Of a stretch of 31,034 bases of DNA, positions 2,546-27,684 are shown in pieces. The position numbers and the translations under genes are program-made. Position 1 is the first letter of the stretch. Each line of letters begins with the position of its first letter. The notes beneath the pieces were generated by a model. It worked only from the letters and a program-made list of their open reading frames with translations, was not told where the DNA came from and made no database searches. This DNA is from Candidatus Thorarchaeota archaeon (lineage in GTDB: Archaea; Asgardarchaeota; Thorarchaeia; Thorarchaeales; Thorarchaeaceae). The DNA is taken from NCBI GenBank assembly GCA_048882385.1, contig JBHLRQ010000031.1:1-31034 (forward strand). The letters are read 5' to 3'.

Positions 2546-2836
2546 GTGAAATTTGTTGTACTAGGTAACCTTACTCAGCAGGGAATTAAGACAATCAAGG
2601 AGGCAGGGAAACGCCAACAACAGGCTGTTGAGATTATGAAATCGTTTGGATGCAATTTGATTAGTCTCTACTATACAATGGGAAAATTCGACTGGGTAGC
2701 AATTGTAGAAGGACCAGACATTGATTCTGCAATGAAGGCACTCTTCGTGTTTGGGATGGGAGGCACCAACCGTACAGAAACTCTTGTTGCAATAACAGGA
2801 GACGAAGCTGTAAAGTTGATTGGAGAACTACCTTGA
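2546..2836 (+). CDS. GYD domain-containing protein
   Basis: 96 aa with TQQGIKTIKE...YYTMGKFDWVAIVEGPD...RTETLVA, typical of the GYD family; strong RBS. Confidence 0.85.
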   Translation: MKFVVLGNLTQQGIKTIKEAGKRQQQAVEIMKSFGCNLISLYYTMGKFDWVAIVEGPDIDSAMKALFVFGMGGTNRTETLVAITGDEAVKLIGELP

Positions 2837-10010: not shown

Positions 10011-11057
10011 ATGTCTGAGGAAACATTGAATCTTCTAAAGATCCTATCTGCAACACCCGGTCCTGTGGGAAGAGAAGGAATGATTCAAGATGTTGTCAAA
10101 GAGCATTTCAAGAAACATTGTGGAAACTTTACTCAGGACAGAATTGGCAATGTCATAACCACCCTAGAAGGAGATATGGGCAAGCGTTATGCACTTGTGG
10201 CTCATGCTGATGAGGTTGGATTTCTGATAAGTAATATAGATGAAAGAGGATTCATACGAGTAAAATGGAATACCCAAGGTCATATGCCAGATCTCAGATT
10301 GTTACCTGGGCAATGGGTCCTGATTATGACCGAGTCTGGAATGATTCCGGGAGTCTTTTGTGTGAAGACTGCACATATCGCAGGAGCCGAGGGAAAGAAT
10401 CGCATTCCAACTTATGAAGAGATATTCCTCGACATCGGAGCGAAGACGCTTGATGAAGTGAATGAACAAGGCATAAACATAGGTGATCCTGTCATCTATG
10501 CAGCTCCTGTAGAGAAGTTGATGAATGACAATGTAGCTGGCAAGTCAATGGATGACAGAGTTGGTTTAACTGTCCTGCTTCGTGTACTCGAGCAGGTTTC
10601 AAAGATTGCAAAATCCAAACGTCCAACAATAACTTTCGTGTCAACGGTGATGGAGGAACTGGGAGCAAAAGGAGCCGCTGTGGTGGCAAAAGATCTCAAT
10701 GTTGATGAGATCATTATATTGGATATCGGTCTTGCTGATGACTATCCAGGCACAAAAGGAGAAGCAGGTGTAGCATTGGGCAAAGGTCCAGTTGTCGTGA
10801 TTAAAGATAACGCATTGCATTATTCTCACGAATTTGTGCAGCGTATAATCAAGACTGCTGAAAAGGAAAAGATTCCAATTCAACGTGCGGTCTTTCACTC
10901 ATACATGACTGATGGTGTGCAGTTTGCCTCTCAGGGCCAAGTGGTTGCGGTCCTCGCTGTACCATGTAGATATTCTCACTCAAGTTTTGAAACTGTAAAC
11001 CTCTTGGATATGGATATGACAATACATCTTGTCATGAAACTGTTATCGTCAAGTTAG
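10011..11057 (+). CDS. M42 family metallo-aminopeptidase (TET-like)
   Basis: AHADEVG, IFLDIGA, GKSMDDRVG, MEELG, ILDIG, TDG, RYSHS metal-ligand motifs. Confidence 0.92.
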   Translation: MSEETLNLLKILSATPGPVGREGMIQDVVKEHFKKHCGNFTQDRIGNVITTLEGDMGKRYALVAHADEVGFLISNIDERGFIRVKWNTQGHMPDLRLLPGQWVLIMTESGMIPGVFCVKTAHIAGAEGKNRIPTYEEIFLDIGAKTLDEVNEQGINIGDPVIYAAPVEKLMNDNVAGKSMDDRVGLTVLLRVLEQVSKIAKSKRPTITFVSTVMEELGAKGAAVVAKDLNVDEIIILDIGLADDYPGTKGEAGVALGKGPVVVIKDNALHYSHEFVQRIIKTAEKEKIPIQRAVFHSYMTDGVQFASQGQVVAVLAVPCRYSHSSFETVNLLDMDMTIHLVMKLLSSS

Positions 11058-11788: not shown

Positions 11789-12931
11789 GTGCGCCTCGTC
11801 TGTGACCATTTCTTGAAGACTGAAACTATCCAGATCATGGCTGGAGCAGCTACACTCTCCGCATTCACATATGTTCCAATCCTAGCAAGAGTACATCTGG
11901 GCATCTCAGAGATTCTAGTCACAATAATTGTAGGAGGATTTGCTACAGCAAGCTTTCTTTCAGCCTATATCTTTGGCAGAGCAGGAGATGTATATGGTCG
12001 GAGGGTAATCATCAGACTGGGATTGGTCGTAGCCTCCATTTCTTTTGGTCTTCTTCTAGTTTCATCAGATTTTGTAACATTGTTCATTGTGCGATTGATG
12101 AACGGTTTCTGCGTGGGGATGTATCCAGGAGCTCTTGCTGCATTTGCTTTTGAGTCAAAAATGAAGATGGGACGGTTTGCCACATGGGGTGCTGCTGGGT
12201 GGGGATTGGGAACACTGCTAGCAGGTTATGCAGCAGGTTTCAACATCTACTATGCATTCATCATGTCTACAATCTTTTTCGTCATAGCATTTGGTTCATC
12301 TCTAACTCTGCCTCCTTTAGATCAAGCTCCAATGTATGTTCCATGGTTCCCAGTTGAAACATTCAAACGAAACATCTCAGTATATTTGGCAGTCTTGATT
12401 CGACACAGTAGCGCATTTGCAATCTGGACACTATGGCCGTTGTTTCTCTATGACATTGGGGGTGACCCATTCATGATTTCAGTTGTTCAGGCCACCAGTG
12501 CAATTTTCCAAGTTCTGTTCATGGTGACTATAACTGATCGGTTCGAGAGTAGGCGATTGGTATCAATTGGATTAGTCGCATCTGCTATCACATTTGCGTG
12601 GTTTCCATTTGCCACAAACATAATCGAAATTCTTCCATCGCAAATCCTTGTGGGTTTCGCATGGGCAATGCTCTATGTTGGCGCATTGAAGTATGTGACA
12701 GAGAATAACGAGGAACGGTCAACAGCATCAGGACTGCTTCAATCAATGTTTTCACTATCAGGTGTCATAGGGCCCATTATTGCGGCTGTTATCTACACAA
12801 TTTGGCCAGGTTATGCCCCGATCATGTTGTTTGCCTCAGTAATGTCGCTTCTGTCATACGGCCTGTTTTGGGGATATAATAGAAATCATCAGCTTGAGAT
12901 AGTTGAAGGTCCAATCATTGAAACCGCCTAG
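11789..12931 (+). CDS. MFS transporter
   Basis: Motif A GRAGDVYGRR, second copy TDRFESRR, about 12 TM segments. Confidence 0.92.
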   Translation: MRLVCDHFLKTETIQIMAGAATLSAFTYVPILARVHLGISEILVTIIVGGFATASFLSAYIFGRAGDVYGRRVIIRLGLVVASISFGLLLVSSDFVTLFIVRLMNGFCVGMYPGALAAFAFESKMKMGRFATWGAAGWGLGTLLAGYAAGFNIYYAFIMSTIFFVIAFGSSLTLPPLDQAPMYVPWFPVETFKRNISVYLAVLIRHSSAFAIWTLWPLFLYDIGGDPFMISVVQATSAIFQVLFMVTITDRFESRRLVSIGLVASAITFAWFPFATNIIEILPSQILVGFAWAMLYVGALKYVTENNEERSTASGLLQSMFSLSGVIGPIIAAVIYTIWPGYAPIMLFASVMSLLSYGLFWGYNRNHQLEIVEGPIIETA

Positions 12932-14093
12932 CACGACGTGATTTCACCTCTTCGATTTTTTGACCGAAATTCACCTCAGACAGACGGTTAGCTATGACTG
13001 GAGAAATAATCATGACCATGATAGCAAAGACACCAATTACAGCTATGTCTATGAGTAACGTACCATAACTGCCTTCAACGAACATTCTGATCAGTGAGCG
13101 ATATACATTGGACACTGGAAGATACTCGTTTGTTATATCAAATGATGAGCCAACGAGTTCCAGAGGAGCAATCCCACCTCCTACAATCCAGTAGAATATT
13201 GCACCTAGTGCACCTACAGGTACTACAAACACGGAGTTCCTGAAGATTGCCCCAGCAATCAATCCAATACCGGAGCTGAAGAGAGCAAGTAGGAAAGTCA
13301 GTGATACGAATACTAGAATATCTCCATTTGGCCAAACACCAAACAGAACAAAGCTGAGTATGAATAGAAACGGTATTGCAACATGGCTGATAACAACTCC
13401 ACTCAACATCTTCCCCAAATAGATCGCATTCGGTGATTGATTTGATAGTACAAGTTCATCCATGGTTTCTTGCTCAAATTCTTGTGTCATTGCTGAACCT
13501 GCTGCGAATATCGCACCAAACATCACAGAGTAGACAGCAATAGTCCATGCCATGTATGCCAGTCTCGGAGGGGTGAATGGTCGGAGGTTCTCTAACTGGA
13601 AATCGACTAATGAATCATTAAAGAGATATGTCTGATAGAAGATGTCGATCTTACGAATGACAGGCATTCGGAGATTCTTAGTCAGGTCTTCATGAATATT
13701 CGCAACCTGTACATGAATTGAGGTTGTTTCATTATTAGCCACTGCCTCCTCAAACCCGTCAGGTATTGTAATTACGAGAAGTATCTCACCATTCTGAAAA
13801 AGGCTGTTGGCGGTTTCTAAATCCATGATTATCGGATCAAGTCGTGGAGGAATAGGATCGTACTCTCCTAAAATTTCGATGAGTCCTTCTGTATAGAACC
13901 CTGGATTCTGTTCCTCAATGACAACTGCTGTTTCAACGCCACTCCCAAAATAGACACCTCCCATGAGCATACTAAATCCTGCAAAGAACATGAGCGGTAA
14001 GAGAATGACAAGAATGAGCTTCTGGGGACTACGTTTCCAGACTCGAAGCTCCTTGACAAAACTAGCCTTGATGACTCTAAATGACACATTCAT
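12915..14093 (-). CDS. ABC-2 type exporter permease
   Basis: N-terminal TM, extracellular loop with ITIPDGF, EFEQETMDELVLS, GKML, 5 C-terminal TMs. Confidence 0.9.
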   Translation of the reverse strand: MNVSFRVIKASFVKELRVWKRSPQKLILVILLPLMFFAGFSMLMGGVYFGSGVETAVVIEEQNPGFYTEGLIEILGEYDPIPPRLDPIIMDLETANSLFQNGEILLVITIPDGFEEAVANNETTSIHVQVANIHEDLTKNLRMPVIRKIDIFYQTYLFNDSLVDFQLENLRPFTPPRLAYMAWTIAVYSVMFGAIFAAGSAMTQEFEQETMDELVLSNQSPNAIYLGKMLSGVVISHVAIPFLFILSFVLFGVWPNGDILVFVSLTFLLALFSSGIGLIAGAIFRNSVFVVPVGALGAIFYWIVGGGIAPLELVGSSFDITNEYLPVSNVYRSLIRMFVEGSYGTLLIDIAVIGVFAIMVMIISPVIANRLSEVNFGQKIEEVKSRRARRFQ

Positions 14094-15223
14094 GATCTCT
14101 CAACCTCTCTCTTCATGAGCTGTGCTACAACAGCAGTCATCACAATCCAAGTACCCAGTAAATACAGAAAACCTGTCAGTAGACCTAAAGTTGTATCCAA
14201 GAAAAAGACTCGAGCCCATAAGGTGAGTGAGTGCGTAGTAGGAAGAATTCCCACTAGAATTCTGATTGGAGCAGGAGAAAGACCAATGGGAGCCATTCCC
14301 CCACCGAGTATAAAACCAACAACTGTGATGAGCACAGCAGCAAGTAAAGCCTGCTCTCGGTTTCGTATCTTCAGACCAATTAATTCCCCAACTGGAACTA
14401 GTGCTAGAATGGTGAGAAGCAGGATTCCAAATAGGATGATGATGTTTCCAATTGGCACCACTCCCATGCCAATACAAATCACCGGAGCTGAAATCAGGAT
14501 GGCTGAGAATGACCTCGGAATTGCAGCAAGGGTCCTTCCTATAATCAAAGCAAGTCTAGGTGTAGGTGAATTCAGGGTATCTTGGAGGGCATTTGTTTCA
14601 AACTCGGTAGCTGTTAGCATTGCTTGACTAGCAAGGGAACATGCAATGAGAGAGAGCATTATTGCCACGGCGGCCATGTATTTGAGATTCGAAGGAGTTT
14701 CGATAAGGCTGAAGGACTCCTCAATTGAGATACGAGCATCTGATTGATCAAACTCTGGGGAAACAGCACCTTGGTTGAAAAGAAGAACTGCTGCTTCCAG
14801 TCGATGTACATAGTTCTTTACGATATCATCATTAGCATTGTTGATAAACATCAGAACGGACGTGTTTTGTCCAGACGTCACATTGTTTCCAAAACCTTCT
14901 GGTATCAGGATGTAGGCAATGAGTGAGGTGCTCTGGTATAATTCATCTGCAGTCTGTAAGTCATATCTTTCAATACTGAACCAAGTATGATTGGTAGTAG
15001 ACACCATGTTTTCAATGATATCAGCCATATCATTTGCTTGAGGAGAGAGGTCTTCTACAACAAGACCACAGGCAAAAGACTCTCCACCTCCAACTGAGGT
15101 CCACATAATCGTATAGACTAACAAGAAGACAAATGGGATGATTAGACTGGGTCCAAGGAATTTGGGATCGCGCTTTGCTTGTTTCAAATCCTTCTTCACA
15201 ATTGCTATGATCTCGCGAATCAA
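14090..15223 (-). CDS. ABC-2 type exporter permease
   Basis: Same architecture (ILIPEGF, EFETNAL, GR, LPTTH); 4-nt overlap with the next gene. Confidence 0.9.
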   Translation of the reverse strand: MIREIIAIVKKDLKQAKRDPKFLGPSLIIPFVFLLVYTIMWTSVGGGESFACGLVVEDLSPQANDMADIIENMVSTTNHTWFSIERYDLQTADELYQSTSLIAYILIPEGFGNNVTSGQNTSVLMFINNANDDIVKNYVHRLEAAVLLFNQGAVSPEFDQSDARISIEESFSLIETPSNLKYMAAVAIMLSLIACSLASQAMLTATEFETNALQDTLNSPTPRLALIIGRTLAAIPRSFSAILISAPVICIGMGVVPIGNIIILFGILLLTILALVPVGELIGLKIRNREQALLAAVLITVVGFILGGGMAPIGLSPAPIRILVGILPTTHSLTLWARVFFLDTTLGLLTGFLYLLGTWIVMTAVVAQLMKREVERS

Positions 15224-15224
15224 C

Positions 15225-16196
15225 TCAATCCCTCAGTCTTGAACCAGTAATAGCAAGAAATACATCCCCAAGCGAAGGTTCTCTCATTGAAGCTTGTTTG
15301 ACAGATAGTCCACTCTCTGATAGTCTACTAAGTACTATGGGCAAGTCAGAGTGACCAGATTGACTTCGAATCCAAGCAGTTCTTGGTCCGCCATTGAGTG
15401 GTTCAGAAACCTTCTCTACTTCAAATCCAACTTTCTCTTTCAACCATTCAGAGCCCTGGGAGCTATCCATGCCTTCAAGAAGAACCTCAATAAGAAAGTC
15501 CCCAACATACTGACGCTTAAGGTCACTAGGCTTTCCGTTAGCCACAAGCTGACCATTATCAATAACGACCACGCGGTCAGCAAGAGCTTCAGCCTCATCC
15601 ATATAGTTTGTGCAGAATATGATTGTACGTCCTTCATCTTTCATCTTGCGGACCTGATTCCATATCAGATTGCGACTCTGAACATCGACTCCCAGTGACA
15701 TCTCATCCAGAATAAGAAGTTCAGAATCATGGAGGATGGATCTCACAAGTGCAAGTCGTCGTTTCATTCCTCCAGAGTATGTCCTCACGAGATCGTCCTT
15801 TCGATGGGTCAGTCCAGACAACTCAAGCATCTTGGTTATGCGTTCTTGAACATCGCCTTTTGGAACACCATACAGCTCAGCATGATATTCAAGAGCCTCA
15901 TAGGCTGTCAGGTCCTGATAAAGTGCGGTTTCTTGCGGCATGAATCCGATGAGCTTTCGGATCGCATCAAGATTTTCTGAAACCTCGTTTCCAGCAACTT
16001 TCACACTACCGGAAGTTGGTTTCAAAATTCCGGTAATCATTTTCACGGTTGTAGACTTCCCAGCTCCGTTTGGACCAAGAAGAGCCAAAATCTCTCCCTT
16101 TTCGACTGTAAATGAGAGAGAGTCAAGTGCCTTTATGTCGCCGTTATAGATATGCGTCAGTTTTGATATTTCAACTATTGAGGTCAGCTGAATCAC
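15225..16196 (-). CDS. ABC exporter ATP-binding subunit (DrrA-like)
   Basis: Walker A GPNGAGKST, signature YSGGMKRR, Walker B LILDE, C-terminal EPSLGDVF. Confidence 0.95.
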   Translation of the reverse strand: MIQLTSIVEISKLTHIYNGDIKALDSLSFTVEKGEILALLGPNGAGKSTTVKMITGILKPTSGSVKVAGNEVSENLDAIRKLIGFMPQETALYQDLTAYEALEYHAELYGVPKGDVQERITKMLELSGLTHRKDDLVRTYSGGMKRRLALVRSILHDSELLILDEMSLGVDVQSRNLIWNQVRKMKDEGRTIIFCTNYMDEAEALADRVVVIDNGQLVANGKPSDLKRQYVGDFLIEVLLEGMDSSQGSEWLKEKVGFEVEKVSEPLNGGPRTAWIRSQSGHSDLPIVLSRLSESGLSVKQASMREPSLGDVFLAITGSRLRD

Positions 16197-17528: not shown

Positions 17529-18320
17529 ATGAATGAAGCTCATCTCAAGTTCCTGAAATGTCCCAAATGTGGAAAAAAACTGCAAGGGAATGAAGACATC
17601 ACTGATGGTGAGATTGTATGTAACAAAGGTCATGTTTGGAAAGTCACAGGGGGGATTCCATCTCTCGTACACCCACCAATTAGTGAGAAGGATGCCAAAT
17701 GGATTGCAGACTATGACCAGATGGCAGAGAACTATGATGAGCTAGTCAAACAATACGATGATTGGTTGGGTATCGATATGATGAAGGAACGAGAGAACTT
17801 CATTACATTCGTACCAATTGAAGGTCCAGTTTCGATAATTGATGTCAGTATAGGAACAGGAGCCAACTTTATAGCTCTCTTCAATAAGTTCAAGGATCAG
17901 ATTAGAAGATTTGACCTACACGGGATGGATTTGTCTACTGGTATGCTAGATGTTTCACGGAGGAAATTCAAAGAGAACGGTCTCACTGTAGGTCTTACTC
18001 ACGGTAGTGTTTTCAATATCCCATTTCAGAATAACCTATTCGACATGGTCTTGCATTCTGGGGGGATAAATACGTTCTCAGATATTCCCGGAGCACTCAA
18101 TGAGATGTTAAGAATAGCAAAACCCGGAGGAATCATCATCGTTATCGATGAGGGGCTTTCACCAAAGAAAAGAGATACAGAAGAGGGAAGTGCTATCATA
18201 AAGGCAAACACTCTATTTGCAGCAAAACCACCCCTTGAGCATATTCCTGAAAAAGCAAATGATGTAGAAGTCACATACGTCATGAATGAAACCTTCTATC
18301 AAGTTGTCTTCAGAAAATAG
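17529..18320 (+). CDS. Class I SAM methyltransferase with an N-terminal Trm112-like zinc ribbon
   Basis: LKCPKC...CNKGHVW...GIPSL N-terminus; IIDVSIGTG, GMDLS, EMLRIAKPGG. Confidence 0.85.
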   Translation: MNEAHLKFLKCPKCGKKLQGNEDITDGEIVCNKGHVWKVTGGIPSLVHPPISEKDAKWIADYDQMAENYDELVKQYDDWLGIDMMKERENFITFVPIEGPVSIIDVSIGTGANFIALFNKFKDQIRRFDLHGMDLSTGMLDVSRRKFKENGLTVGLTHGSVFNIPFQNNLFDMVLHSGGINTFSDIPGALNEMLRIAKPGGIIIVIDEGLSPKKRDTEEGSAIIKANTLFAAKPPLEHIPEKANDVEVTYVMNETFYQVVFRK

Positions 18321-18331
18321 ATGCTTCAATT

Positions 18332-18405
18332 TGGTGAAAATTCACCATTATTACTATTCGTTAAAAATAGGGGTGAGTGCTCAGGTGGCCTCCCACAAGA
18401 GCACT
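18332..18405. terminator. Two hairpins between convergent units
   Basis: TGGTGAA-aa-TTCACCA (18332-18347) and AGTGCTC-ag-GTGG-cctc-CCAC-aa-GAGCACT (18376-18405); on the minus strand the second is followed by a T-tract. Confidence 0.5.
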
Positions 18406-18497
18406 TCCTCAACAGTCAATTCTTGACGTTTTTGTACGTCAACTGTACGGCTCTCTTTGCGTGGACTACAAGAAACTGCTTCGTTGATTGGAGTCAT
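18381..18497 (-). CDS. Small peptide 3 (38 aa): MTPINEAVSCSPRKESRTVDVQKRQELTVEEVLLWEAT
   Basis: Manual translation; ATG 6 nt after the stop of peptide 2, preceded by AGGTAG. Confidence 0.5.
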   Translation of the reverse strand: MTPINEAVSCSPRKESRTVDVQKRQELTVEEVLLWEAT

Positions 18498-18503
18498 TGC
18501 AAT

Positions 18504-18593
18504 CTACCTGTATGTGTATGAATGAGTGATAGCATCAGTAGAGATCCGTTTCCTCGGCTTGAACTTCTTCTTGGTTGTTTTTGCTATTGCCAT
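18504..18593 (-). CDS. Small basic peptide 2 (29 aa): MAIAKTTKKKFKPRKRISTDAITHSYTYR
   Basis: Manual translation; strong AGGAGGT RBS overlapping the stop of peptide 1; aligns with peptide 1. Confidence 0.65.
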   Translation of the reverse strand: MAIAKTTKKKFKPRKRISTDAITHSYTYR

Positions 18594-18599
18594 GTTTGT

Positions 18600-18707
18600 T
18601 TACCTCCTGAACTGGTAAGCGTACCCGAGTGCGAAGGTCGTTTGGATCCTCGCAATCTTGTTGTTTAACTTCTCAAGGTTGTTGGTTGTGAGTTTCGCTA
18701 GAGCCAT
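18600..18707 (-). CDS. Small basic peptide 1 (35 aa): MALAKLTTNNLEKLNNKIARIQTTFALGYAYQFRR
   Basis: Manual translation; ATG about 33 nt downstream of a CTTATATAG TATA box; aligns with peptide 2. Confidence 0.65.
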   Translation of the reverse strand: MALAKLTTNNLEKLNNKIARIQTTFALGYAYQFRR

Positions 18708-18738
18708 CGTTTTTCACGTTGTATGTACACACCACTTT

Positions 18739-18756
18739 TCTATATAAGGTTTGTTC
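18739..18756 (-). promoter_or_regulatory. BRE/TATA promoter of the small-peptide operon
   Basis: Minus strand GAACAAAC-CTTATATAGA; the same 10-mer CTTATATAGA precedes the profilin gene at 20652-20661. Confidence 0.6.
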
Positions 18757-19026
18757 TCCAAACTATTGAGTACTAAATTGTTGTGTTGAAACACTAAAAA
18801 TATTATATTGGTGGAAAAAATAGGATGTGCCAAACGTTTGATTTACAAATGGTGTCTTACATCAACAAATTTATATTCTGATTTATACGAATATAAAACA
18901 GGTTCGGGGTGGTTTAAAGAGCCCCTGGTGGATTTTAAAATCCAAAATCCACGAGAAAAATACGAACGATTCCCGGGCATATCCAAGTCACGAGACGGAC
19001 CAACGAAACATTGGTGAGAAAAAAAC

Positions 19027-19782
19027 ATGGGCGATGACGACATCACAACAGAAATCACGGACAGCCTTGAAGGAATTGTCTTGACAGAAGAAGGCGAACA
19101 ACCCCAGAAAGAGATTGTTTTTGTAACGGATGACGAGAGAGCCGAGGTTCTAGATGAACTTGTACGCTTCAACATCCTGCAGGTTCTACGAAAAGGTGTC
19201 AAAGACACAATCACTACAGAAACAAGAGATGAAGAAACGGGTGATAGAATCATCAGGAAACGAGATGTAAAACGAAATGTGTTGTCTGTTGTTGAGATTG
19301 TGAAGATGTCTCCGGACTGTTGTTATGATGGAGAAGAGATCACTAAGAACCAAGTGTACCATCACTTACCAATTTTGATAGAAAACGGCTATGTAATCAA
19401 ATATGGTACAGTCACAACAGGTAAACGAACTACAGACTATTACAGAAGGACTGCAAAAGGATTCATGCTAACAAAAGGTGCTTGGGGTACTGAAGAAAAG
19501 CGAATTCGGGAGAAACTTGGAAGTTTTACAGAAAAAATGCTTGAAACCTTCAATTTGGACCTCTCAGAAGAGAAGCGCAAAGAATTGTTAGATTTGAGTG
19601 TAAAGAGAACTCAGATGCAGTATGAGTGGAGATCCAAAATTGCCGAAATGGTCAGTCTAGATGTAGCAAACAAAGAAATTCTGAACATGTATGAGATGCT
19701 ACTCGATTATTACTCCGTAGGATTCAAGGAATATATGGATGTAATCTACAGAATTAGAGAAATCCTCTTTCCTGAAGAATAG
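19027..19782 (+). CDS. ArsR-like winged-helix transcriptional regulator with an insertion and a helical C-terminal domain
   Basis: DELVRFNILQVL...LSVVEI...ITKNQVYHHLPILIENGYV...DYYRRTAK; GGTGA RBS. Confidence 0.8.
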   Translation: MGDDDITTEITDSLEGIVLTEEGEQPQKEIVFVTDDERAEVLDELVRFNILQVLRKGVKDTITTETRDEETGDRIIRKRDVKRNVLSVVEIVKMSPDCCYDGEEITKNQVYHHLPILIENGYVIKYGTVTTGKRTTDYYRRTAKGFMLTKGAWGTEEKRIREKLGSFTEKMLETFNLDLSEEKRKELLDLSVKRTQMQYEWRSKIAEMVSLDVANKEILNMYEMLLDYYSVGFKEYMDVIYRIREILFPEE

Positions 19783-19792
19783 TCTAGAAAAT

Positions 19793-20167
19793 TCAAACGT
19801 GGCCTTTTAGCTGAATAGCTGATTTGGTCACATCAATGATTGATAGTTCGGGCACTGCATGAGGAGCTGCAAAAGCAATCGCCCAGATCTCTTCATCAAT
19901 TTTCACTAAGAGGAGATGGCCTTTGTCACCATCAGCAGTAGCGATATACGAGTCTACTGTTGAAGACGCCTTCTTGTACTTCATGCCCCCAGCTATCACA
20001 GAGGATTTGTCTTCCTTGATCGCTTTAATAATTACATCTGCATCTTCGACAAGGTCCCAGTTCTCTGTTTGCCAGATTATTGCTCCTTCCTTTACCACAG
20101 CAAATGCTTGAATCTTGGGATTGTTAGCATAGAGCTGATTCCATTCGTTCCCGATTATTGTGCTCAA
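19793..20167 (-). CDS. Asgard-type profilin (paralog B)
   Basis: 124 aa; QAFAVV, WQTENWDL, GGMKY, KGHLLL, C-terminal helix; GGAGG RBS before the TTG start. Confidence 0.8.
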   Translation of the reverse strand: MSTIIGNEWNQLYANNPKIQAFAVVKEGAIIWQTENWDLVEDADVIIKAIKEDKSSVIAGGMKYKKASSTVDSYIATADGDKGHLLLVKIDEEIWAIAFAAPHAVPELSIIDVTKSAIQLKGHV

Positions 20168-20195
20168 AGAAAGCCCTCCAGTTTCAAAGAGAAGT

Positions 20196-20233
20196 AATCG
20201 AGGGGGATTCCTCCCTGTATGTTCCCCCTGATT
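20196..20233 (-). terminator. Hairpin between the two profilin genes
   Basis: Minus strand AATC-AGGGGGA-15nt-TCCCCCT-c-GATT followed by a pyrimidine tract. Confidence 0.5.
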
Positions 20234-20239
20234 CCATGG

Positions 20240-20626
20240 TTAAATCTTGCCTCGAAGGGTCTTAGCGGCTCGGTCTACATCAACATAAACACCATCTGGC
20301 TGAGCACTTGCATCAGCCCACGCCACAACCCATCTATCACCAGCAGCATCTATTTTTGTCAGGATTAGAATCCCACTTCCCTGAACATTTCGTGCCACAA
20401 GGCTTTCTGGAGTAGACCTCATCGTACTGTATTTGACTGAGTTCTGTACAACTGAAGAGCTTCTTGATTTTACTGCGGCGATCAGACTTGAAGCCTCAGC
20501 AGTCAAATCCCAATTGTTACTCTGCCACAGAACTTGTCCAGATTCGGTTATGACACCGAAGGCTTGAACCATATTTCCCGAACTATTGTATGCTTGCGTA
20601 TATGCATCCATTACAGGATCGCTCAT
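20240..20626 (-). CDS. Asgard-type profilin (paralog A)
   Basis: 128 aa; QAFGVI, GQVLWQSNNWDL, VKYSTMR, RNVQGSG, C-terminal helix; TATA box and GGGGTGA upstream. Confidence 0.85.
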   Translation of the reverse strand: MSDPVMDAYTQAYNSSGNMVQAFGVITESGQVLWQSNNWDLTAEASSLIAAVKSRSSSVVQNSVKYSTMRSTPESLVARNVQGSGILILTKIDAAGDRWVVAWADASAQPDGVYVDVDRAAKTLRGKI

Positions 20627-20754
20627 GTGAATTCACCCCGTATATCTACGGTCTATATAAGAACGTCCTGTACCTTCTCCAAATAAACAAATCCTTGACG
20701 GCCCTGTCTTCGAATTTCAAGCACACTCATATGGATTGGTGCATCCTGAATGGT

Positions 20755-21054
20755 ATGTGTACTGCGATTTGGGAGAGTGAAAAGGGAACGTTCATCAGAT
20801 TCCTAGTACGTCCCAATTCCAAAGAACGGGAGTTTATTGTAGGGATTTCTTCTGAGAATGTCATGGTCAATCTGAAAAGCCCAGCAAGACAAGGAAAGGC
20901 TAACACCGAATTGGTCAAACGACTCACCAAAGTACTTGGCATCTCAACATCCAGCGTTAGACTTGTTTCGGGACATAAAACAAAGGAAAAAACACTCTTG
21001 ATACATGGACTGGGCGTCCAAGATGTTCAAAGGATGCTCGCAAATATGACATAG
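20755..21054 (+). CDS. DUF167 (YggU/UPF0235) family protein
   Basis: VRPNS...PARQGKANTELV...LVSGHKTKEK. Start moved to the in-frame ATG at 20755 (99 aa) to avoid overlapping the profilin gene and promoter. Confidence 0.85.
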   Translation: MCTAIWESEKGTFIRFLVRPNSKEREFIVGISSENVMVNLKSPARQGKANTELVKRLTKVLGISTSSVRLVSGHKTKEKTLLIHGLGVQDVQRMLANMT

Positions 21055-21140
21055 GCAGTTATATACAGGAGAACGAAGGCAAGGCATGGTCAACATCGAT
21101 TGAAACCAGTGGATATACCTTTGACTCGGAGAGAGCAGCT

Positions 21141-23990
21141 GTGAGAGACAGAACTAGAAGATTCCTTAGTTACATCTTTGCAGGATTTATCTTCTATGTT
21201 CTCGCTGCAATGTTGTTAGGCCGCTTTGCTGAACCAGCTGCAATTATTGCTCTCCTGACATCATTTGTATTCCTCTATCTCTCCTTATACAGACCCCCAC
21301 CCGATTTTCTAGATCGTGTAGTAATATTCTGCTTCGCTGCAATCTATATTCCACTCAGCTTCTTAGCACGAATTTTCTCAGAGATGGTCATCATATCAAT
21401 AGCAATTGCATTGACCTATCTAGCAATTCAGACAATATTCAATCCAGATCTAACGAGATCACTTCTCTCAGGTTTATTCCTTGCTGGCGCAATATATTCA
21501 GGAATTCTAATGATCTTAGGTCGATGGTACAATCTGGATGTCATAATAGCTCTTGTGACGACACTTGCACTTCTCTATTTCATATTGTACCGACGTCCGT
21601 TTGAAATCAGAGAGCTAGTTGTTGCAGTCTTTCTCACTGCAATCTATCTGCCGTTTAGTCTGTTTGCTGGGATTTTCTCTGAGATGACTATTGTGACGAT
21701 TGGAGCTATAGTAATCTACATAGTTATGACAACAAAGATACGGCCAGATCCGAAGAGATCATTTCTTGTGGGACTTTATTCTGCTGGAATCTTCTATACA
21801 CTTATTTTGATGGCAGAAGGAAGATGGCTTCATCCAGATGTCATTTTCGCTTTGGTTCTGGAGATCACACTTCTTTACATGTCAGTATTCAAAAAACCTC
21901 CAGACAAGAAAGAACTTGCAGCGATTACGACACTGATTTTGATATATCTGCTTCTTAGTGCATACTTTGCCTTCTTCACTGAAGCTGTAGTAATGGCCAT
22001 TGGAGGTCTTGCAATCTATGGAATCATCAGAGCCGAACCAAAATTCCCACTCACAAAACGGGCATTGGGTACAGGATTGATTGTTGGCATAATTATGACG
22101 TTCATGGGCATCTATCTTGCCCTTAAGCTCGGAGTAGTATTTCTAGTTGGAGCGGAAATGTTAGGAGCCATAATACTTAGTGTGTATGGAAAATACACTT
22201 GCGAAGAGAATGCAGTGGTAGTGGCGATTGCAAACTCGTCATCAATGATCGCAATTGGTGTTTTATTGACATATCCAGCAATTGCTATCTTCGATACAGC
22301 AAATCCTTTGTTCAACACGTCTCTTGCCGCATATAATCCAACAACAACTCTGATATTCATCGTTCTCACAACTGGCATCAGTGCAATCTTCGGACTCATT
22401 CTCTTGGCTCCCTTCAGAGACCGCTTTGAGAAAGAGGCTTGGCCCCAGGTACAACCACAAGCGGAGTGTATCAACTCAATTGGAGGAGATACGGAAGCCA
22501 AGAAATCTGTGGGAATTGGAATTGTTGCTTCTGGTGCGTGGGTAGGCGCATCTAAGATTGGAGAAGGGATTTCAGGCTCTTCTTTGAGTACTGTTCCAAA
22601 TGCTCTGGCACCCATTATTCCGGCTGCGTCTGCAATTCCAGATTGGATTGGGATAAGCAACTCTCCGATGATTGCTGGAATCGGATTCTTTGTTGGATGG
22701 AAACGGGCTGTTGTCATGGCTATTGGTGGTGTGATTTCGATTCTCATCTGGATATTCTTGGAGGGTGCCGTTGGAGCAGTGGAGTATAGTACACATCTAA
22801 AGAGACCAGAGATTCTCTATTTTGCCTTGGGTCTATTTGTCACTGTCATCCTTGGAGATGTCCTCAGTGGAAAAAAGGAGGAGAAGAATCTCACTCCGGA
22901 AGAATTTGACAGGACCACAAAGAAAACAGAAGAAGACGGAGCCATAATTGTTGATGCTCCGCACAAAACTGAGGAACTCCCAAGAGTCTTGAGAGTGAAA
23001 CAGGAGCTGTTCTCAATTGAAACCTTTAAGGAAGAAGTCAGAGAAATAGTCGATAATCCTAGGGAGTATCTTAGGTCTCACAGGGGTCAGGTTCCCCCAT
23101 GGATCGCAATTCTGTCAATGGGTATATTCATGGTCATTGGAATCATCGTCTTCTGGTTTATCGCTCCTTTCATGCAGAGTGAAACGGCACCTCTAAGGAT
23201 TCACTGGCTTTTGTTTATCTTTGGAACACCACTTGCATTAGTGTCAGCATACTTTACAGCCAGAGCCATAAGTGAAACCGGAATGCTCGCAGGATACATC
23301 TCCGACATTGTAGCAATCCCTGCCATCATATTCTTCAAGGTCACATTTTCAGCGATAACAACATTCATGGGAATGTTGGGAGCAGTGCAAGATTCTGCAA
23401 TTGCATTGCTAGTTCACCTTAAGCTCGGTAGACTTACTGGCGTACGTGGAAGAGATGTTCTGAAAGCAGTTTCTGTTGGTGCAATGCTTGGTACAACTGT
23501 TGGCTCTCTCATCACATTCCAGATATTCAATGCCTATGGATTTGGGAGCTCTGACTTTCCAGCACCAGCTGCACAGCTCTTTGGATTTCTTGTAACAAGT
23601 CTGGAAGGTATAGGTAACTTTCAACTACCTGGATTGAATCTACTTGATGTTCCTCCACTTTTTGCGTTTCTTTATCTCTTTATGTGGGCGATAGGTGGAT
23701 TCCTTGCAGGACGAGAACTAAATAGACGAGGTTTGAGTCCAATCAGCCTGGTCGTGGGAGTGCTAATCCCGCCTGCTACATCAGTTACAATTCTGATAGG
23801 TGGATGCATCAATTACAGAGTAAAGCAGATACAAAAGCCAATAGCTAGGGTTCCAGACCATATTCCACAACAGATTGAGGTCTATGAAGCAGGTTACAGT
23901 CACACAAGTCGGGTACTTAGTGGGATTGTAGCTGGAGAGGCGGTTATTACGGTGATTTGGGTTATTTTGAGCGCATTTCTTATCATTTAG
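21141..23990 (+). CDS. OPT/YSL-family oligopeptide transporter with a triplicated N-terminal membrane extension
   Basis: From about aa 305: LTKRAL..G..YLALKLG, EEN, WP, GIGFFVG, RAISETG, LKLGRLTG, FPAPAA, SGIVAGEA OPT motifs. Confidence 0.85.
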   Translation: MRDRTRRFLSYIFAGFIFYVLAAMLLGRFAEPAAIIALLTSFVFLYLSLYRPPPDFLDRVVIFCFAAIYIPLSFLARIFSEMVIISIAIALTYLAIQTIFNPDLTRSLLSGLFLAGAIYSGILMILGRWYNLDVIIALVTTLALLYFILYRRPFEIRELVVAVFLTAIYLPFSLFAGIFSEMTIVTIGAIVIYIVMTTKIRPDPKRSFLVGLYSAGIFYTLILMAEGRWLHPDVIFALVLEITLLYMSVFKKPPDKKELAAITTLILIYLLLSAYFAFFTEAVVMAIGGLAIYGIIRAEPKFPLTKRALGTGLIVGIIMTFMGIYLALKLGVVFLVGAEMLGAIILSVYGKYTCEENAVVVAIANSSSMIAIGVLLTYPAIAIFDTANPLFNTSLAAYNPTTTLIFIVLTTGISAIFGLILLAPFRDRFEKEAWPQVQPQAECINSIGGDTEAKKSVGIGIVASGAWVGASKIGEGISGSSLSTVPNALAPIIPAASAIPDWIGISNSPMIAGIGFFVGWKRAVVMAIGGVISILIWIFLEGAVGAVEYSTHLKRPEILYFALGLFVTVILGDVLSGKKEEKNLTPEEFDRTTKKTEEDGAIIVDAPHKTEELPRVLRVKQELFSIETFKEEVREIVDNPREYLRSHRGQVPPWIAILSMGIFMVIGIIVFWFIAPFMQSETAPLRIHWLLFIFGTPLALVSAYFTARAISETGMLAGYISDIVAIPAIIFFKVTFSAITTFMGMLGAVQDSAIALLVHLKLGRLTGVRGRDVLKAVSVGAMLGTTVGSLITFQIFNAYGFGSSDFPAPAAQLFGFLVTSLEGIGNFQLPGLNLLDVPPLFAFLYLFMWAIGGFLAGRELNRRGLSPISLVVGVLIPPATSVTILIGGCINYRVKQIQKPIARVPDHIPQQIEVYEAGYSHTSRVLSGIVAGEAVITVIWVILSAFLII
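21153..22052 (+). repeat. Three tandem 300-nt (100-aa) intragenic repeats
   Basis: aa 5-104, 105-204 and 205-304 align without gaps; DNA echo CCAGATC at 21444 and 21744. Confidence 0.85.
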
Positions 23991-24976: not shown

Positions 24977-26365
24977 CTAACGTTTGAACGTTTCTTCAAG
25001 AGCCTTGTCCCATTCATCAACTTCAGACTCATCGCCCTTTCGTTTCTTTCTGGCTTTGGTACGGGCTTTTCGAGCTTTTTCAGCCTCGCGTTTTTTGCGA
25101 GCTAACTCCTTCTTCCTTAGCTTCACAGCCTCTTTCTCTTCCTTGGTCATCTCCTCCTTCTCAACGACTTCTCTTCTAGAGAACCAAGAGATTATCATGG
25201 CTGTAAATGGAAATAGTAAGACGACTGGTACAAGAAACAGAAGAACAATTTCGGGTTGGATGAGTTCCACGCTGCTCTGTATTCCAATAGGCAAGTTGAG
25301 GAGTATTGAAACCACGCTAGGACTCATCAAAATGAATGATAGTGAAACAACTGTGAGAAATCTTATTGCAGACCCTGTTATGGTTGAACCAATGACATAT
25401 GATGATGAAGGTGCTGCAGCTTTTGCAGTAAGTTCATCTCTGGCTCTTGAATCGGTCTGGAGTAATTCGTCAACGTAGATTTGAAGTCTACGAACATCAG
25501 AAACTGCATCAAGGCTCTCTAAAGCATCCTGGGTTCCAACCACTTTACGTTCAATAGCCTCTCTAAGAAAGGAGAATGCTGTTGCTCCTGTTGTACGACT
25601 CATACCAGTTGTACTTACTTTTTCTCCACGCTCAATCGCATCTTGTTTTCTCGTAGCTTGACGTAGTGCTAGAAGCTGTTTCTTCAGTGTTTCCTCTCGA
25701 TCCTCGACTGGCTTTCCAACGGAGTAGCTGTATATCATCTGATAACTGACTTCAAGATACGCAAACGAAACTAGGGCTAATAGTTGAGCTGGCATCTGGA
25801 GAAAGACCATGAAATCCCCTGGAAATGGATTAAGGTCAGGGACGATGAGAGCCCTAAAAGCTGCAAGTATCACTATCGCTTGAATCGAGAGAAATGCTCC
25901 ACCTACATACTTATGCTCCATTCGAGCAAGTGACTGCAAGAATAATGCAATTCCAACTCCAGCAAAAAGGAAGTACAGAAAGAGGAATGTGTTGTCCCAA
26001 AGAGCGAAGAGTACATCCAAAAGATTTGTTTGGAAAGAGGTCCAAACTTCCGCTACATTGGTCAGAGGATCTGAAACCCCGTAGGGTTGCATATACCAAG
26101 TTCTAAGAACCAATGTATTGTAGAGACCTATAATCAGATCACTTGGCATTGCACCTCCAGCGAATGCACTCACCAGCCCACTAATCATTGTAGTAGTTAG
26201 AAAGAACACAATAAGAGAGAGAAGTCTGAATACTGTAACCACGAAGTTATACGGAGCATCCCAGTGCCAAAAATCATTGACATCAAGTAGGTAGTAAACA
26301 AGAAATGCCATACCAGCGAAGGTAGCGATGGATGCAATGCGAAGTATCCAAGTGACAACCTTCAA
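24977..26365 (-). CDS. Polytopic membrane protein of unknown function with a highly charged C-terminal tail
   Basis: About 7-8 TM segments, a large soluble loop and a K/R/E-rich tail; 4-nt overlap with the DUF58 gene. Confidence 0.8.
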   Translation of the reverse strand: MKVVTWILRIASIATFAGMAFLVYYLLDVNDFWHWDAPYNFVVTVFRLLSLIVFFLTTTMISGLVSAFAGGAMPSDLIIGLYNTLVLRTWYMQPYGVSDPLTNVAEVWTSFQTNLLDVLFALWDNTFLFLYFLFAGVGIALFLQSLARMEHKYVGGAFLSIQAIVILAAFRALIVPDLNPFPGDFMVFLQMPAQLLALVSFAYLEVSYQMIYSYSVGKPVEDREETLKKQLLALRQATRKQDAIERGEKVSTTGMSRTTGATAFSFLREAIERKVVGTQDALESLDAVSDVRRLQIYVDELLQTDSRARDELTAKAAAPSSSYVIGSTITGSAIRFLTVVSLSFILMSPSVVSILLNLPIGIQSSVELIQPEIVLLFLVPVVLLFPFTAMIISWFSRREVVEKEEMTKEEKEAVKLRKKELARKKREAEKARKARTKARKKRKGDESEVDEWDKALEETFKR

Positions 26366-27684
26366 AATGTTGCCACCCCCTTCTGTTTTGCTTGTTCGTA
26401 TGTCCTGATGATTGTCGGCAAGAAATCTTCAGGGCCTACATTGATGACTTGAATATTAAACCTAGCAAGTGCTCGAGCAATCTTGGTTCTACGTTCCCAG
26501 AGTTCCTCTGAAACAGCTTCTGAAAGCACCTTTTCAACTGGTCCAAACTGACCAACAGGCGCTTCAAACCAAGGACCAAAAGGACTAATCACCATGGCTT
26601 TGTGTCCATTTGCAACAAGTGTCTTCATTGCATTTAGTAGAGGAGCTGGACTTTGTTCCAAGTCTGTCAACCAGATGATCAATGACCGTTTCTTACTTTG
26701 TGTCACAACATGTGAAATTGCTGTTTCGTAATCGCTCCAACCCATTGGTTCTGCCATAGCGAGAATCTCTAGAACATCATACATGTGATTAGGTCTTGCT
26801 CCTGGAGGCACATATCCATGAACCATGTCGCTGAACACACATGTGCCAACTAGATCTTTCCTTTCAAGACCCATGTGTGTGAGTAGAACAGCTGCTCTTA
26901 TTGCATACTCAAGCTTAGTATTTTCTGGGTACCCGTTACCCATACTACCACTAGTATCAACCATGCAGATTACCTGGACATTTTTCTCTTGCTCCCATTG
27001 TTTGATGACCATGTCACCACGTTTTGCACTAGTCTTCCAATCGATGAGTCGGAATTCATCCCCAGGAACATATTCTCTGAAACCAGCAAAATCAGTCCCC
27101 ATTCCCACTGTCTTGGTGCGATGTGCTCCAAACATGAGACCAAGCTGTCGTTGCTTGCCAAGAGCTTCCATTCGACGGACGTCCTTCCAAGTAGGATAGA
27201 CTAGGACCTCAGTCTGTTCCTTGAGGATTCGCTTGTAATAATGAAGACCAAGTCGGTCACGCATAATGACTTCTGTGGGTCCCAAGTAATAGCGTCCACG
27301 CATGCGTGCTTGTAGAATATATGAGAAAGTCATACTGCTTCCGGGTTCAATCCTTGAAGCCATGAAGTTCTCGCCAATTGCTAGAATCCAAGTTTCTGGG
27401 TATTGGTCATGGACTTCAATGAAATCAAAATGACGCCTGGATGCATTACGAATTGTAACTCTCACACGAATGAAATCGCTTGAGAACACCTTTACCTTGT
27501 CAATTTGACGATCCACTTCAATGCCAGCTAGATTAGCAGTCAATGCAAAGAGAGGCAACGTGACGACTAGACCAATCACGAGATAGACTCCTAAGAGGAC
27601 GAGGTAGAAGTTTAGAAAGGAGAATCCACTAGTCAATAATAGAACTCCTGCGAAGACTACCACGAAGCCTCTCTGCGTTATCAC
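26362..27684 (-). CDS. DUF58 / vWA-like MoxR partner protein
   Basis: RGRY, VYP, DFAGFREYVPGDEFRLIDWKTSAK, MIDAS-like DTSGSM, TD. Confidence 0.92.
   Translation of the reverse strand: MITQRGFVVVFAGVLLLTSGFSFLNFYLVLLGVYLVIGLVVTLPLFALTANLAGIEVDRQIDKVKVFSSDFIRVRVTIRNASRRHFDFIEVHDQYPETWILAIGENFMASRIEPGSSMTFSYILQARMRGRYYLGPTEVIMRDRLGLHYYKRILKEQTEVLVYPTWKDVRRMEALGKQRQLGLMFGAHRTKTVGMGTDFAGFREYVPGDEFRLIDWKTSAKRGDMVIKQWEQEKNVQVICMVDTSGSMGNGYPENTKLEYAIRAAVLLTHMGLERKDLVGTCVFSDMVHGYVPPGARPNHMYDVLEILAMAEPMGWSDYETAISHVVTQSKKRSLIIWLTDLEQSPAPLLNAMKTLVANGHKAMVISPFGPWFEAPVGQFGPVEKVLSEAVSEELWERRTKIARALARFNIQVINVGPEDFLPTIIRTYEQAKQKGVATF

Follow-up and report, generated by a model that had tools for sequence, protein, structure and literature searches.

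What is encoded in the apparently intergenic DNA between a gene for a winged helix-turn-helix (wHTH) protein and a gene for a methyltransferase on a contig of a Candidatus Thorarchaeota archaeon? The stretch that was analyzed (GenBank assembly GCA_048882385.1, contig JBHLRQ010000031.1, positions 1 to 31,034; its full length of 31,034 nucleotides (nt) is called the window here) had been given a first-pass annotation from the sequence alone, which proposed a hidden operon of three small open reading frames (ORFs) on the minus strand. Genes of this kind, with 28 to 38 codons, are routinely missed in the annotation of metagenome-assembled genomes. An ORF listing returned ORF1, ORF2, and ORF3 with exactly the coordinates and peptides proposed; we call their products A-long, A-short, and B, respectively. 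Read from the sequence, a compact unit consisting of a promoter, the three cistrons, and a hairpin with a T-tract spans positions 18767 to 18363 of the minus strand (Table 1). We consider it highly probable that this coding operon is real, and sequence comparison shows, or nearly shows, that it is a self-contained tricistronic microprotein operon with a promoter and a terminator of its own. It is a new lineage-specific small-protein system, with an unusual terminator that is dual-coded as protein and RNA.

The evidence that the three ORFs are genes comes from the genus to which the window belongs. BLASTN with positions 18300 to 18800 detected a homologous stretch in all 24 other genomes of the genus (E = 5e-96 to 6e-15); outside the genus, only short pieces were found, with E = 4.5e-4 or worse. 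Reading frames were analyzed in 27 fetched loci in addition to the window's own, with three genomes carrying a second copy. ORF2 and ORF3 were intact in 28/28 loci and ORF1 in 27/27, as one locus ends at a contig edge before ORF1. Along the three ORFs, frames +1 and +2 were interrupted by at least one stop codon in 23 to 28 loci. Ratios of nonsynonymous to synonymous differences (pN/pS), obtained from Nei-Gojobori counts over all pairs, were 0.51 for ORF1, 0.34 for ORF2, and 0.66 for ORF3, at a pS of about 0.6, where synonymous sites are near saturation. The carboxyl-terminal halves were the most constrained (0.35, 0.22, and 0.56, respectively), and the third codon position was the most variable, accounting for 0.40 to 0.51 of the differences. 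Taken together, the open frames in all loci, the pN/pS values, and the third-position bias indicate that ORF1, ORF2, and ORF3 are protein-coding. The claim of real coding was thus borne out, and the frameshifts or stop codons without codon-level conservation that had been named as the signs of its failure did not occur, the frames being intact in every locus of the genus.

Two other ways of reading the open frames were rejected. A single gene, read through two stop codons, is at odds with the homologs, as several of them have ORF1 and ORF2 in different frames, at a spacing of 4 to 7 nt. A gene on the opposite strand was rejected since the stop-free antisense stretches (44 to 107 amino acids (aa)) vary by locus, and since the codon-position pattern fits the minus-strand frames. 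In three related loci (L016-L018), one antisense frame (107 aa) runs without a stop codon through the entire operon, about 323 nt, while the longest such stretches in the other loci measure 44 to 100 aa; the long antisense frame is probably a by-product of codon content.

These antisense stretches could also be taken as a sign that the ORFs are open by chance, and the 3′ end of the operon, which is structured and covaries, could be taken as a sign of a conserved non-coding RNA. We hold either reading to be extremely unlikely. No locus has a closed coding frame, whereas stop codons interrupt the other sense frames, pN/pS lies below 1 with saturated synonymous sites and a third-position bias, and the antisense open length differs among loci. 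An Rfam search of positions 18381 to 18756 at permissive thresholds gave no match with E < 3, the best overlapping one (E = 3.3) being far under the gathering score, and ARAGORN found no tRNA in the window.

The signals around the three cistrons are conserved as well. The TATA box of the first-pass annotation was confirmed and sits within a conserved element that also comprises a transcription factor B recognition element (BRE). Of 27 homologous loci, 24 carry AAAC[CT]TTATAT, which lies at -44 to -46 from the ORF1 ATG in 23 and at -74 in one; the remaining three, all second-copy loci, carry CTATATA at -38 to -41. AACCATT, the inverse of the AATGGTT motif found directly 5′ of the BRE, is repeated about 95 nt further upstream, near the promoter of the divergent wHTH gene, where a second CAAAC-TTAAATA-like box is oriented toward that gene. 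From their positions, the AATGGTT/AACCATT repeats are candidate operator sites. A Shine-Dalgarno (SD)-like motif was found 7 to 12 nt ahead of ORF1 in 27/27 loci.

The junctions between the cistrons are particularly tight. The final Arg codons and stop codons of ORF1 and ORF2 had been read as the ribosome-binding sites of the cistrons that follow, and both junctions are kept in the 23 loci listed: GGAGGTA(A/G), which encodes Arg-Arg-stop, precedes ORF2 in 23/23, and AGGTAG precedes ORF3 in 23/23. In the window, both spacers measure 6 nt and all three ORFs share one frame. Across the listed loci, the ORF1-ORF2 spacer is 4 to 7 nt in 23/23, and ORF2 and ORF3 are separated by 6 nt in 21 loci, by 4 nt in one, and by 0 nt in one. 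Termination-reinitiation operons of archaea and bacteria likewise carry an SD in the end of the upstream cistron and have a very short stop-to-start distance, so that the layout is in line with the translational coupling that had been suggested. Different from such operons, all three cistrons encode microproteins here and the unit is repeated as a multigene family, with the coupling itself suggested by the gene layout. The operon shows, in a clean natural case, three microprotein cistrons linked at distances of 4 to 7 nt. In five loci (L061, L069, L071, L078, and L103), among them some that at first appear to lack A-short, this cistron apparently initiates at CTG, TTG, or GTG just past the A-long stop codon, an example being the junction ...TAA ATAAT CTG GCA CTA GCA..., which can be read as (M)ALA.... 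Near-cognate starts right after an upstream stop codon fit reinitiation.

Table 1. Positions of the operon elements and of neighboring genes in the window.
Feature	Positions	Strand	Remarks
Candidate operator AATAGTTTGG	18758-18767	-	Directly 5′ of the BRE; AATGGTT(T)GG in relatives, from alignments of upstream regions
BRE/TATA promoter CAAACCTTATATA	18741-18753	-	Includes the TATA box CTTATATAG at 18748-18740
Conserved block GTGGTGTGT	18727-18735	-	Between TATA box and SD; (T)GGTGTG in most aligned loci; probably the transcription start region
SD-like GTGA	18714-18717	-	10 nt 5′ of the ORF1 ATG
ORF1 (A-long), 35 aa	18707-18600	-	Cationic; predicted single helix; ends ...ALGYAYQFRR
ORF2 SD AGGAGGT	18602-18608	-	Last two Arg codons and stop codon of ORF1 (AGG AGG TAA)
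ORF2 (A-short), 29 aa	18593-18504	-	Net charge +8; ends ...ISTDAITHSYTYR; best-conserved cistron
ORF3 SD-like AGGT	18506-18509	-	Overlaps last Arg codon and stop codon of ORF2 (AGG TAG)
ORF3 (B), 38 aa	18497-18381	-	N-terminal part variable, probably disordered; short acidic C-terminal helix ...TVEEVLLWEAT
Hairpin	18405-18376	-	Outer stem 18405-18399/18382-18376; inner stem 18396-18393/18388-18385
T-tract	18367-18363	-	3′ of the hairpin; T run after the hairpin in most loci; probable (putative) transcription end
wHTH regulator, 251 aa	19027-19782	+	Divergent to the operon; candidate controller
Two tandem profilin-like genes	19793-20167, 20240-20626	-	Convergent with the regulator; kept in orthologous loci
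Oligopeptide transporter (OPT), 949 aa	21141-23990	+	Residues 304-942 match OPT, E = 2e-31; extra N-terminal membrane region of ~300 aa
UbiE/Methyltransf_11 methyltransferase with N-terminal Trm112-like zinc ribbon	17529-18320	+	PADLOC 'mad2' match, E = 3e-11

The first 2 peptides are related to each other, as the first-pass annotation had recognized from their shared residues. Profile-profile comparison with hhalign gave a probability of 96.4% (E = 1.1e-9 over 22 columns), and on this basis ORF1 and ORF2 are paralogs within one family, A. A broad profile of this family (A4) was built from an alignment of 97 A peptides. These are 28 to 38 aa long and start with MAL(A/T)(K/T)N, followed by a variable middle part of basic and polar residues and a conserved end, (S/T)T(D/E)A(I/L)..(A/S)Y.(Y/F)R(R). 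In 14 cases without a following cistron, the peptide nevertheless ends in Arg-Arg, encoded by varied codons, which marks this ending as a protein-level trait rather than a mere by-product of the SD. The mean net charge is +4.7 for A-long and +5.7 for A-short, while it is -2.4 for B. A peptides are hydrophilic (mean Eisenberg hydrophobicity of -0.23 to -0.27, longest apolar run 5 residues, best 18-residue hydrophobic moment 0.30 to 0.35), and they were found to lack a signal peptide, a double-glycine leader, and a hydrophobic segment. AlphaFold2 (AF2), supplied with the 97-sequence alignment, predicted ORF1 as one helix over residues 2 to 32, with a mean predicted local distance difference test score (pLDDT) of 80; a single alpha-helix is the predicted form of A peptides in general. 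B peptides have a different conserved end, (E/D)VL.(W/L)EAT, which is predicted to form a short acidic helix, while their polar N-terminal part drifts fast. Here, AF2 predicted disorder except for a helix at residues 29 to 36 (mean pLDDT 62.8, about 80 toward the end).

None of the three peptides belongs to a described family in the collections searched, in agreement with their having been called undescribed. Searches of Pfam (up to E = 1), NCBIfam (up to E = 10), and PADLOC identified no family. PHROGs returned only a match of E = 0.32 for ORF3, a profile search of the PDB returned only the N-terminus of uS11 (E = 0.49), and the ESM Atlas gave no usable match. The larger proteins of the source genome (G000) contained neither an A nor a B motif, the best E values being 2.7 and 0.69. 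In the literature, no such peptide family was found at the level of abstracts; supplementary lists of small Thorarchaeota proteins could hold one.

The most unusual feature of the operon lies at the end of ORF3. A hairpin and a T-tract had been placed behind this cistron, and both are present, but the hairpin does not lie 3′ of ORF3; rather, it is built from its last codons and stop codon. GAAGTGC-TC, from the Glu, Val, and Leu codons, pairs with GA-GCACTT, an arm that starts inside the stop codon, and the inner pairing joins TGTGG, spanning the Trp codon, to CCAC(C) from the Ala and Thr codons. The minimum free energy of the hairpin is -22 kcal/mol (z = -2.74), and 3 of 200 shuffles fold as well. 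To assess covariation, the ends of 38 B genes, taken from both orthologous and paralogous loci, were aligned. Over these 38 loci, 88.3% of the cells are paired, compared to 31.6% to 47.6% when the partner is slid by 1 to 3 columns. Compensatory changes on both sides occur in 17 cells, compared to 5.9 in shuffles, and 0/500 shuffles reach the observed number. Examples are GTG to GTA, accompanied by a change of GCAC to GTAC or GTGC, and TGG (Trp) to TTG (Leu), accompanied by GCC to GCA. In one locus (L069), even a change of the stop codon from TGA to TAA is compensated by CTC to CTT. In another (L071), the hairpin is formed in a different register while the sequence still encodes ...LLWEAT, with EAT lying in the loop.

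About 8 to 9 of the last codons of ORF3 and its stop codon are thus constrained both as protein and as RNA hairpin. Because these codons form a covarying hairpin, the conservation of ...EVLLWEAT is partly an RNA constraint. At the same time, the frame of ORF3 is always open and EAT is kept where it is unpaired, showing that translation, and probably the C-terminal end of the peptide itself, matter as well. Intrinsic terminators, consisting of a hairpin and a T-tract, can overlap the end of a coding sequence, and likewise have a G+C-rich stem, a T run, and a stop codon within the stem. What distinguishes the present one is the dual coding of about 8 codons plus the stop codon, together with compensation that includes a non-synonymous Trp-to-Leu change and a TGA-to-TAA change. 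Termination in archaea is generally held to need a T-tract only. The 3′ end of the methyltransferase gene lies 60 nt from the ORF3 stop codon, which places the hairpin between two convergent genes.

A stop codon that is paired within a covarying hairpin raises an alternative explanation, in which it is the act of translation that matters. The C-termini of the peptides would act in the ribosomal exit tunnel, and the terminating ribosome would control the next cistron. A ribosome over the ORF3 stop codon would melt the hairpin, making termination, read-through into the methyltransferase gene, or mRNA stability dependent on translation, and in paralogous operons a pair of A genes would serve as a tandem leader for a downstream transporter gene of the major facilitator superfamily (MFS). 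Several features fit this explanation: conservation is concentrated in the final dozen or so residues, each next SD lies inside the previous stop region, the N-terminal half of ORF3 is nearly neutral while its frame is still always open, and A-A pairs are found 15 to 50 nt upstream of MFS_3 genes. Regulatory leader peptides such as those of erm, cat, and tna are likewise short ORFs with a conserved C-terminus, sometimes in tandem, upstream of a transporter or resistance gene. However, most A/B modules end in a terminator without a downstream gene, the N-terminal MAL(A/T)(K/T)N is conserved too, and no alternative RNA fold was found in which an SD would be sequestered. The terminal Arg-Arg kept with varied codons where nothing follows, and the EAT retained in the loop of the differently registered hairpin, point to the peptides as well. 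Finally, the several copies per genome, five of them near-identical in one, fit a need for product dosage better than local control. We therefore consider control in cis improbable.

The hidden operon does not stand alone; it is one member of a family spread throughout the Thorarchaeota. When 400 genomes of the phylum were searched with an ORF2 profile, matches appeared in 75 of 85 other genomes of the window's family, several in each, and nothing better than E = 0.03 in the rest of the 400 genomes. The A4 profile gave 430 matches at E ≤ 1e-4 in 73 of 86 family genomes and in 14 of 16 genera, corresponding to about six A copies per genome and up to 12 matches in one; all of the 150 matches listed, of these 430, were stop-free. 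When 185,579 prokaryotic species, each represented by one genome, were scanned with an exact pattern that finds only close relatives of the ORF2 motif, 31 stretches were obtained, of which 25 were confirmed: 20 from Candidatus Thorarchaeota, one from Promethearchaeota, and 4 from entries named 'uncultured archaeon'. No relative was found among the viral contigs of IMG/VR. Based on the genome profile searches and this one species scan, the A/B modules form a multigene family that is confined to Thorarchaeota and has at least four syntenic paralogous loci per genome. A genus-level profile of B matched in 47 of 86 genomes, and B peptides of further genera were recognized by eye. The sequence comparisons thus point to a whole multigene family, under purifying selection and with strong expression signals, in apparently intergenic DNA of the Asgard archaea, which are more closely related to eukaryotes than any other known organisms.

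The source genome carries about nine A genes at five places, and its contig C20 holds a second operon, of the type A-A′-B. A third, divergent peptide type, MA(L/F)AK...(V)R(S/T)EVYR(S/T)SF.R, was observed on the same contig at 26486-26600 (+) and in locus L101 at 2722-2829 (-); it occupies the position of A-short in an operon downstream of a PolX polymerase gene, and adjoins a regulator homolog in genome G372. In another genome (G362), five near-identical copies of A-long/A-short(/B), with about 400 nt of flank, were found in five different contexts (L079-L083), which suggests gene conversion, recent spread, or selection for dosage.

The genomic contexts of the family were surveyed in 43 peptide loci beyond the main locus of the genus, and 4 locus types were distinguished. 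The first is the type of the window, with 13 loci from about ten genera. In all 13, which belong to other genera, the operon is divergent to a gene for the 251-aa wHTH protein, and in 9/13 it is convergent to a gene for a UbiE-type methyltransferase with a Trm112-like zinc ribbon, with the gene ends 18 to 150 nt apart. The block behind the regulator consists of two profilins, a DUF167 protein, and an OPT oligopeptide transporter, the latter lying 2 to 3.4 kb from the peptides in 12/13 loci. Loci of the second type (six loci) lie downstream of a gene for a PolX polymerase. Those of the third type lie near EF-1alpha, after a gene for a membrane protein of 139 to 141 aa, and are often directly followed by a gene for an MFS_3 (EntS-like) transporter, while those of the fourth type lie upstream of another MFS family, MFS_1. 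In four loci (L063, L072, L077, and L084), the conserved 139-141-aa membrane protein, which has a weak C-terminal zinc-ribbon match, directly precedes A-A pairs; genes for ClC-like channels were also seen near peptide loci of the EF-1alpha type.

The make-up of the modules varies among genera and includes A, A-B, A-A, A-A-A, and A-A-B, some of the apparent A-B loci containing an A-short with an apparent CTG, TTG, or GTG start. In 9/43 loci, an MFS gene lies 15 to 518 nt downstream on the same strand. As none of these nine contains a B gene, B and MFS look like alternative third cistrons. Together with the recurrent pairing to a lineage-specific regulator, this replacement of the third peptide by a transporter offers testable handles on the small-protein biology of an uncultured lineage.

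Of the functions that could be assigned to the family, we tentatively favor a stoichiometric intracellular complex of two A peptides and one B peptide, a reading drawn from the gene layout and structure predictions that we regard as possible, not as probable. Termination-reinitiation coupling yields fixed ratios of products, which is usually why the subunits of one complex are chained. In the favored mechanism, the junctions of 4 to 7 nt with an SD in the stop region would couple the three cistrons in this manner and set a fixed ratio of the three peptides, which would work together as a small, soluble, intracellular hetero-oligomer. In it, both A peptides would pair through their aromatic, Arg-rich helices with the acidic helix of B: given the complementary charges and the short C-terminal helices of A and B, their ends may associate, leaving the basic parts of A free for a polyanionic or protein target, such as nucleic acid, the ribosome, or the cytoplasmic face of MFS transporters. 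The divergent wHTH protein would regulate transcription via AATGGTT-type repeats flanking the two promoters. An intracellular role is favored because the peptides have neither an export signal nor a membrane-active character. A prediction of the ORF1-ORF2-ORF3 complex from alignments reached a best score of 0.07 against a mark of 0.32, a result that counts neither for nor against binding.

Several points weigh against this mechanism. The step from operon to complex is suggested by gene arrangement, charge complementarity, and predicted helices. The variable make-up of the modules implies that a strict A-A-B trimer cannot be universal. The N-terminal half of ORF3 has a pN/pS of 0.75 and is thus almost neutral, and as its other end is constrained as RNA, B may be of importance as a translated stretch rather than as a protein. 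The linkage to MFS and OPT genes fits exported peptides equally well, as the peptides could either act on the MFS transporter or be its cargo. The 43 loci of the context survey were picked from hit lists and fall into orthologous groups, so that they are not independent, and neither are the other counts made over relatives. Finally, the locus was found in 20 sequencing runs of DNA, which came from sediment and mangrove metagenomes, but in none of RNA.

If the peptides are the cargo, the leaderless A peptides would leave the cell through the MFS pumps and act outside as signals or as non-lytic antimicrobials; they, or fragments of them, might re-enter the cell through the OPT transporter and be detected by the wHTH protein, in a manner similar to RRNPP or Rgg-SHP systems, with B or the pump protecting the producer. 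The MFS genes downstream of the nine loci are of the MFS_3 (EntS-like, 'transmembrane secretion effector') or MFS_1 kind and represent two locus types and several genera, the OPT gene is part of the syntenic block in 12/13 regulator-type loci, and each genome has many diversified A paralogs. In addition, a conserved C-terminus with a variable remainder is found in pheromone precursors, and the regulator is divergent to the operon and has paralogs that adjoin genes for PmbA/TldD peptidases. Nevertheless, we consider export unlikely, if deserving of serious attention. Apart from the missing signal peptide, double-glycine leader, and hydrophobic segment, no processing protease is encoded in the loci, and loci of the window and PolX types lack an exporter. 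The A motif is near-identical in all paralogs and genera, which would lead to cross-talk rather than specificity. The OPT linkage may reflect mere synteny within one family, and five other MFS_1 matches in the source genome are located on contigs without A genes. N-glycosylation sequons are not enriched either (25 in A-long with 19.1 expected, p of about 0.09; 6 in A-short with 6.4 expected).

The RRNPP and Rgg-SHP cassettes of Firmicutes offer a useful comparison. They too have a peptide gene divergent to a helix-turn-helix regulator, a conserved C-terminus of the precursor, and an oligopeptide transporter nearby, and a peptide gene next to the regulator was found in 13/13 regulator-type loci, where a receptor role of the wHTH protein is putative. 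The present system differs in being archaeal and in that the wHTH protein has no tetratricopeptide repeat (TPR) or Rgg peptide-binding domain recognizable by Pfam, while the A peptides have no export signal or hydrophobic C-terminus and a motif that is not diversified among paralogs. A fully fledged Thorarchaeota-specific system of peptide communication or transport, with export by MFS, re-uptake by OPT, and readout by the wHTH family, is a speculative proposal that we rate as rather improbable. Should it be true, it would be the first peptide signaling cassette described in Asgard archaea, perhaps tied to control of the actin cytoskeleton; more generally, a role of the peptides as exported signals, or as regulators of transporters or of the cytoskeleton, would make the family of much higher interest.

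The observation that B and MFS exclude each other as third gene also bears on the suggestion, made in the first-pass annotation, of a toxin with its antidote. The cationic A pair would be toxic, and the third cistron, either B or an efflux pump, would neutralize it. This recalls operons for two-peptide bacteriocins and their immunity proteins, in which two related small peptides are followed by a different third gene, and A is basic while B is acidic. Among the leaderless multi-peptide bacteriocin operons, such as those for aureocin A70, garvicin KS, and enterocin L50, several paralogous cationic leaderless peptides of about 30 to 45 aa are likewise encoded head to tail, sometimes with a linked transporter. 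Those bacteriocins are amphipathic or hydrophobic, Trp-rich, and membrane-acting, whereas the A peptides are hydrophilic, without sequence similarity to them; with their low hydrophobic moment and no membrane segment, the composition of the A peptides provides no amphipathic or hydrophobic helix that could enter a membrane, as would be expected of a membrane-active bacteriocin or type I toxin. The A/B loci are also chromosomal, family-wide, and vertically inherited: each of the four locus types is syntenic across genera, rather than patchy, mobile, or placed in defense islands or viruses, and no relatives were found in viral contigs, PADLOC, or PHROGs. In addition, loci with only A exist. Neither composition nor distribution thus supports a toxin and antidote, which we find highly doubtful.

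The regulator itself had been described as ArsR-like. Its divergent pairing with the operon holds, as seen in the 13 loci of other genera, but its assignment to ArsR could not be established. By sequence, the product of 19027-19782 is a winged-helix protein: Pfam gave a weak match to PadR (E = 0.03, under the cut-off) and one to DUF1002, and the wHTH model of Csa3 in PADLOC matched with E = 2.9e-5. A paralog with 41% identity matched HTH_20 with E = 4.7e-4, also under the cut-off. Of the 26 family genomes sampled, 25 contain the regulator; beyond the family, it is rarely found. Regulator paralogs without a peptide operon were observed directly upstream of a PmbA/TldD peptidase pair (L096, L099, and L100) and, in one locus (L098, at G385:C53, 661-3694), 85 nt upstream of a gelsolin-repeat gene and beside actin. 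The regulator family may therefore be tied to cytoskeleton and peptidase genes.

Another reading takes the peptides as small actin binders of the WH2 or thymosin kind, which would be co-regulated with the neighboring profilins by a regulator family linked to genes of the cytoskeleton. Two profilin-like genes adjoin the regulator in the window and in orthologous loci, although only the second (20240-20626) reaches the Pfam cut-off for profilin (E = 8.7e-6), and a regulator paralog precedes the gelsolin-repeat gene mentioned above. Some A-long peptides have (L/V)KKN in mid-sequence, which loosely recalls the L-basic-basic-T/V motif described for the WH2-like motifs of gelsolin, and not for these peptides, in PMC9433394. 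Yet (L/V)KKN occurs in some paralogs only, in the variable part and outside the conserved motif; no Pfam match to WH2 or thymosin was found for the peptides, and three of the four locus types are without cytoskeleton genes. A function in binding actin is consequently very unlikely.

Lastly, the peptides had been suggested to be precursors of peptides that are made by ribosomes and modified after translation (RiPPs). They could be such precursors, or precursors of a peptide-derived cofactor, if the alternating aromatic motif (H/Y)(A/S)Y.(Y/F) were cross-linked, or changed in some other way, by enzymes encoded elsewhere, with the methyltransferase as a tailoring enzyme. The genes are multi-copy and precursor-like with a conserved aromatic core at the C-terminus, the UbiE-type methyltransferase lies 18 to 150 nt from the operon end in 9/13 regulator-type loci, and YxY-type cores are reported to be cross-linked in cittilins and biarylitides. 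Clustering of neighboring genes, in 21 and then in 43 loci, gave no recurrent maturase; the recurrent neighbors were the regulator, methyltransferase, OPT, PolX, EF-1alpha, MFS, and ClC-like genes, with no recurrent radical S-adenosylmethionine (SAM), YcaO, or lanthipeptide enzyme and no recurrent protein with a RiPP recognition element (RRE) in the four locus types. Moreover, no P450 was found in the source genome (95% complete), the methyltransferase is missing from the paralogous loci, and no NCBIfam precursor model matched. A near-invariant C-terminal motif with a variable middle fits only the cofactor-type RiPP precursors. Those of the PqqA and MftA type are likewise very small genes with an invariant aromatic core at the C-terminus, but, as far as is known, they always lie beside a radical-SAM maturase, a neighbor that does not recur for the A peptides. 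With no maturase linked to the operon, we regard a RiPP precursor as quite improbable, if marginally less so than a toxin.

Four further regions of the window, 12915-16196 (-), 11789-12931 (+), 10011-11057 (+), and 26362-27684 (-), encode two ABC-2-type permease ORFs with an ATPase, an MFS_1 transporter, an M42 aminopeptidase, and a DUF58/VWA protein; no link between these genes and the peptide operon was seen. Elsewhere in the source genome, on contig C23, a radical-SAM-like ORF with a CxxxCxxC-type motif (20068-21207, +) is convergent to a lone A gene (21675-21764, -).

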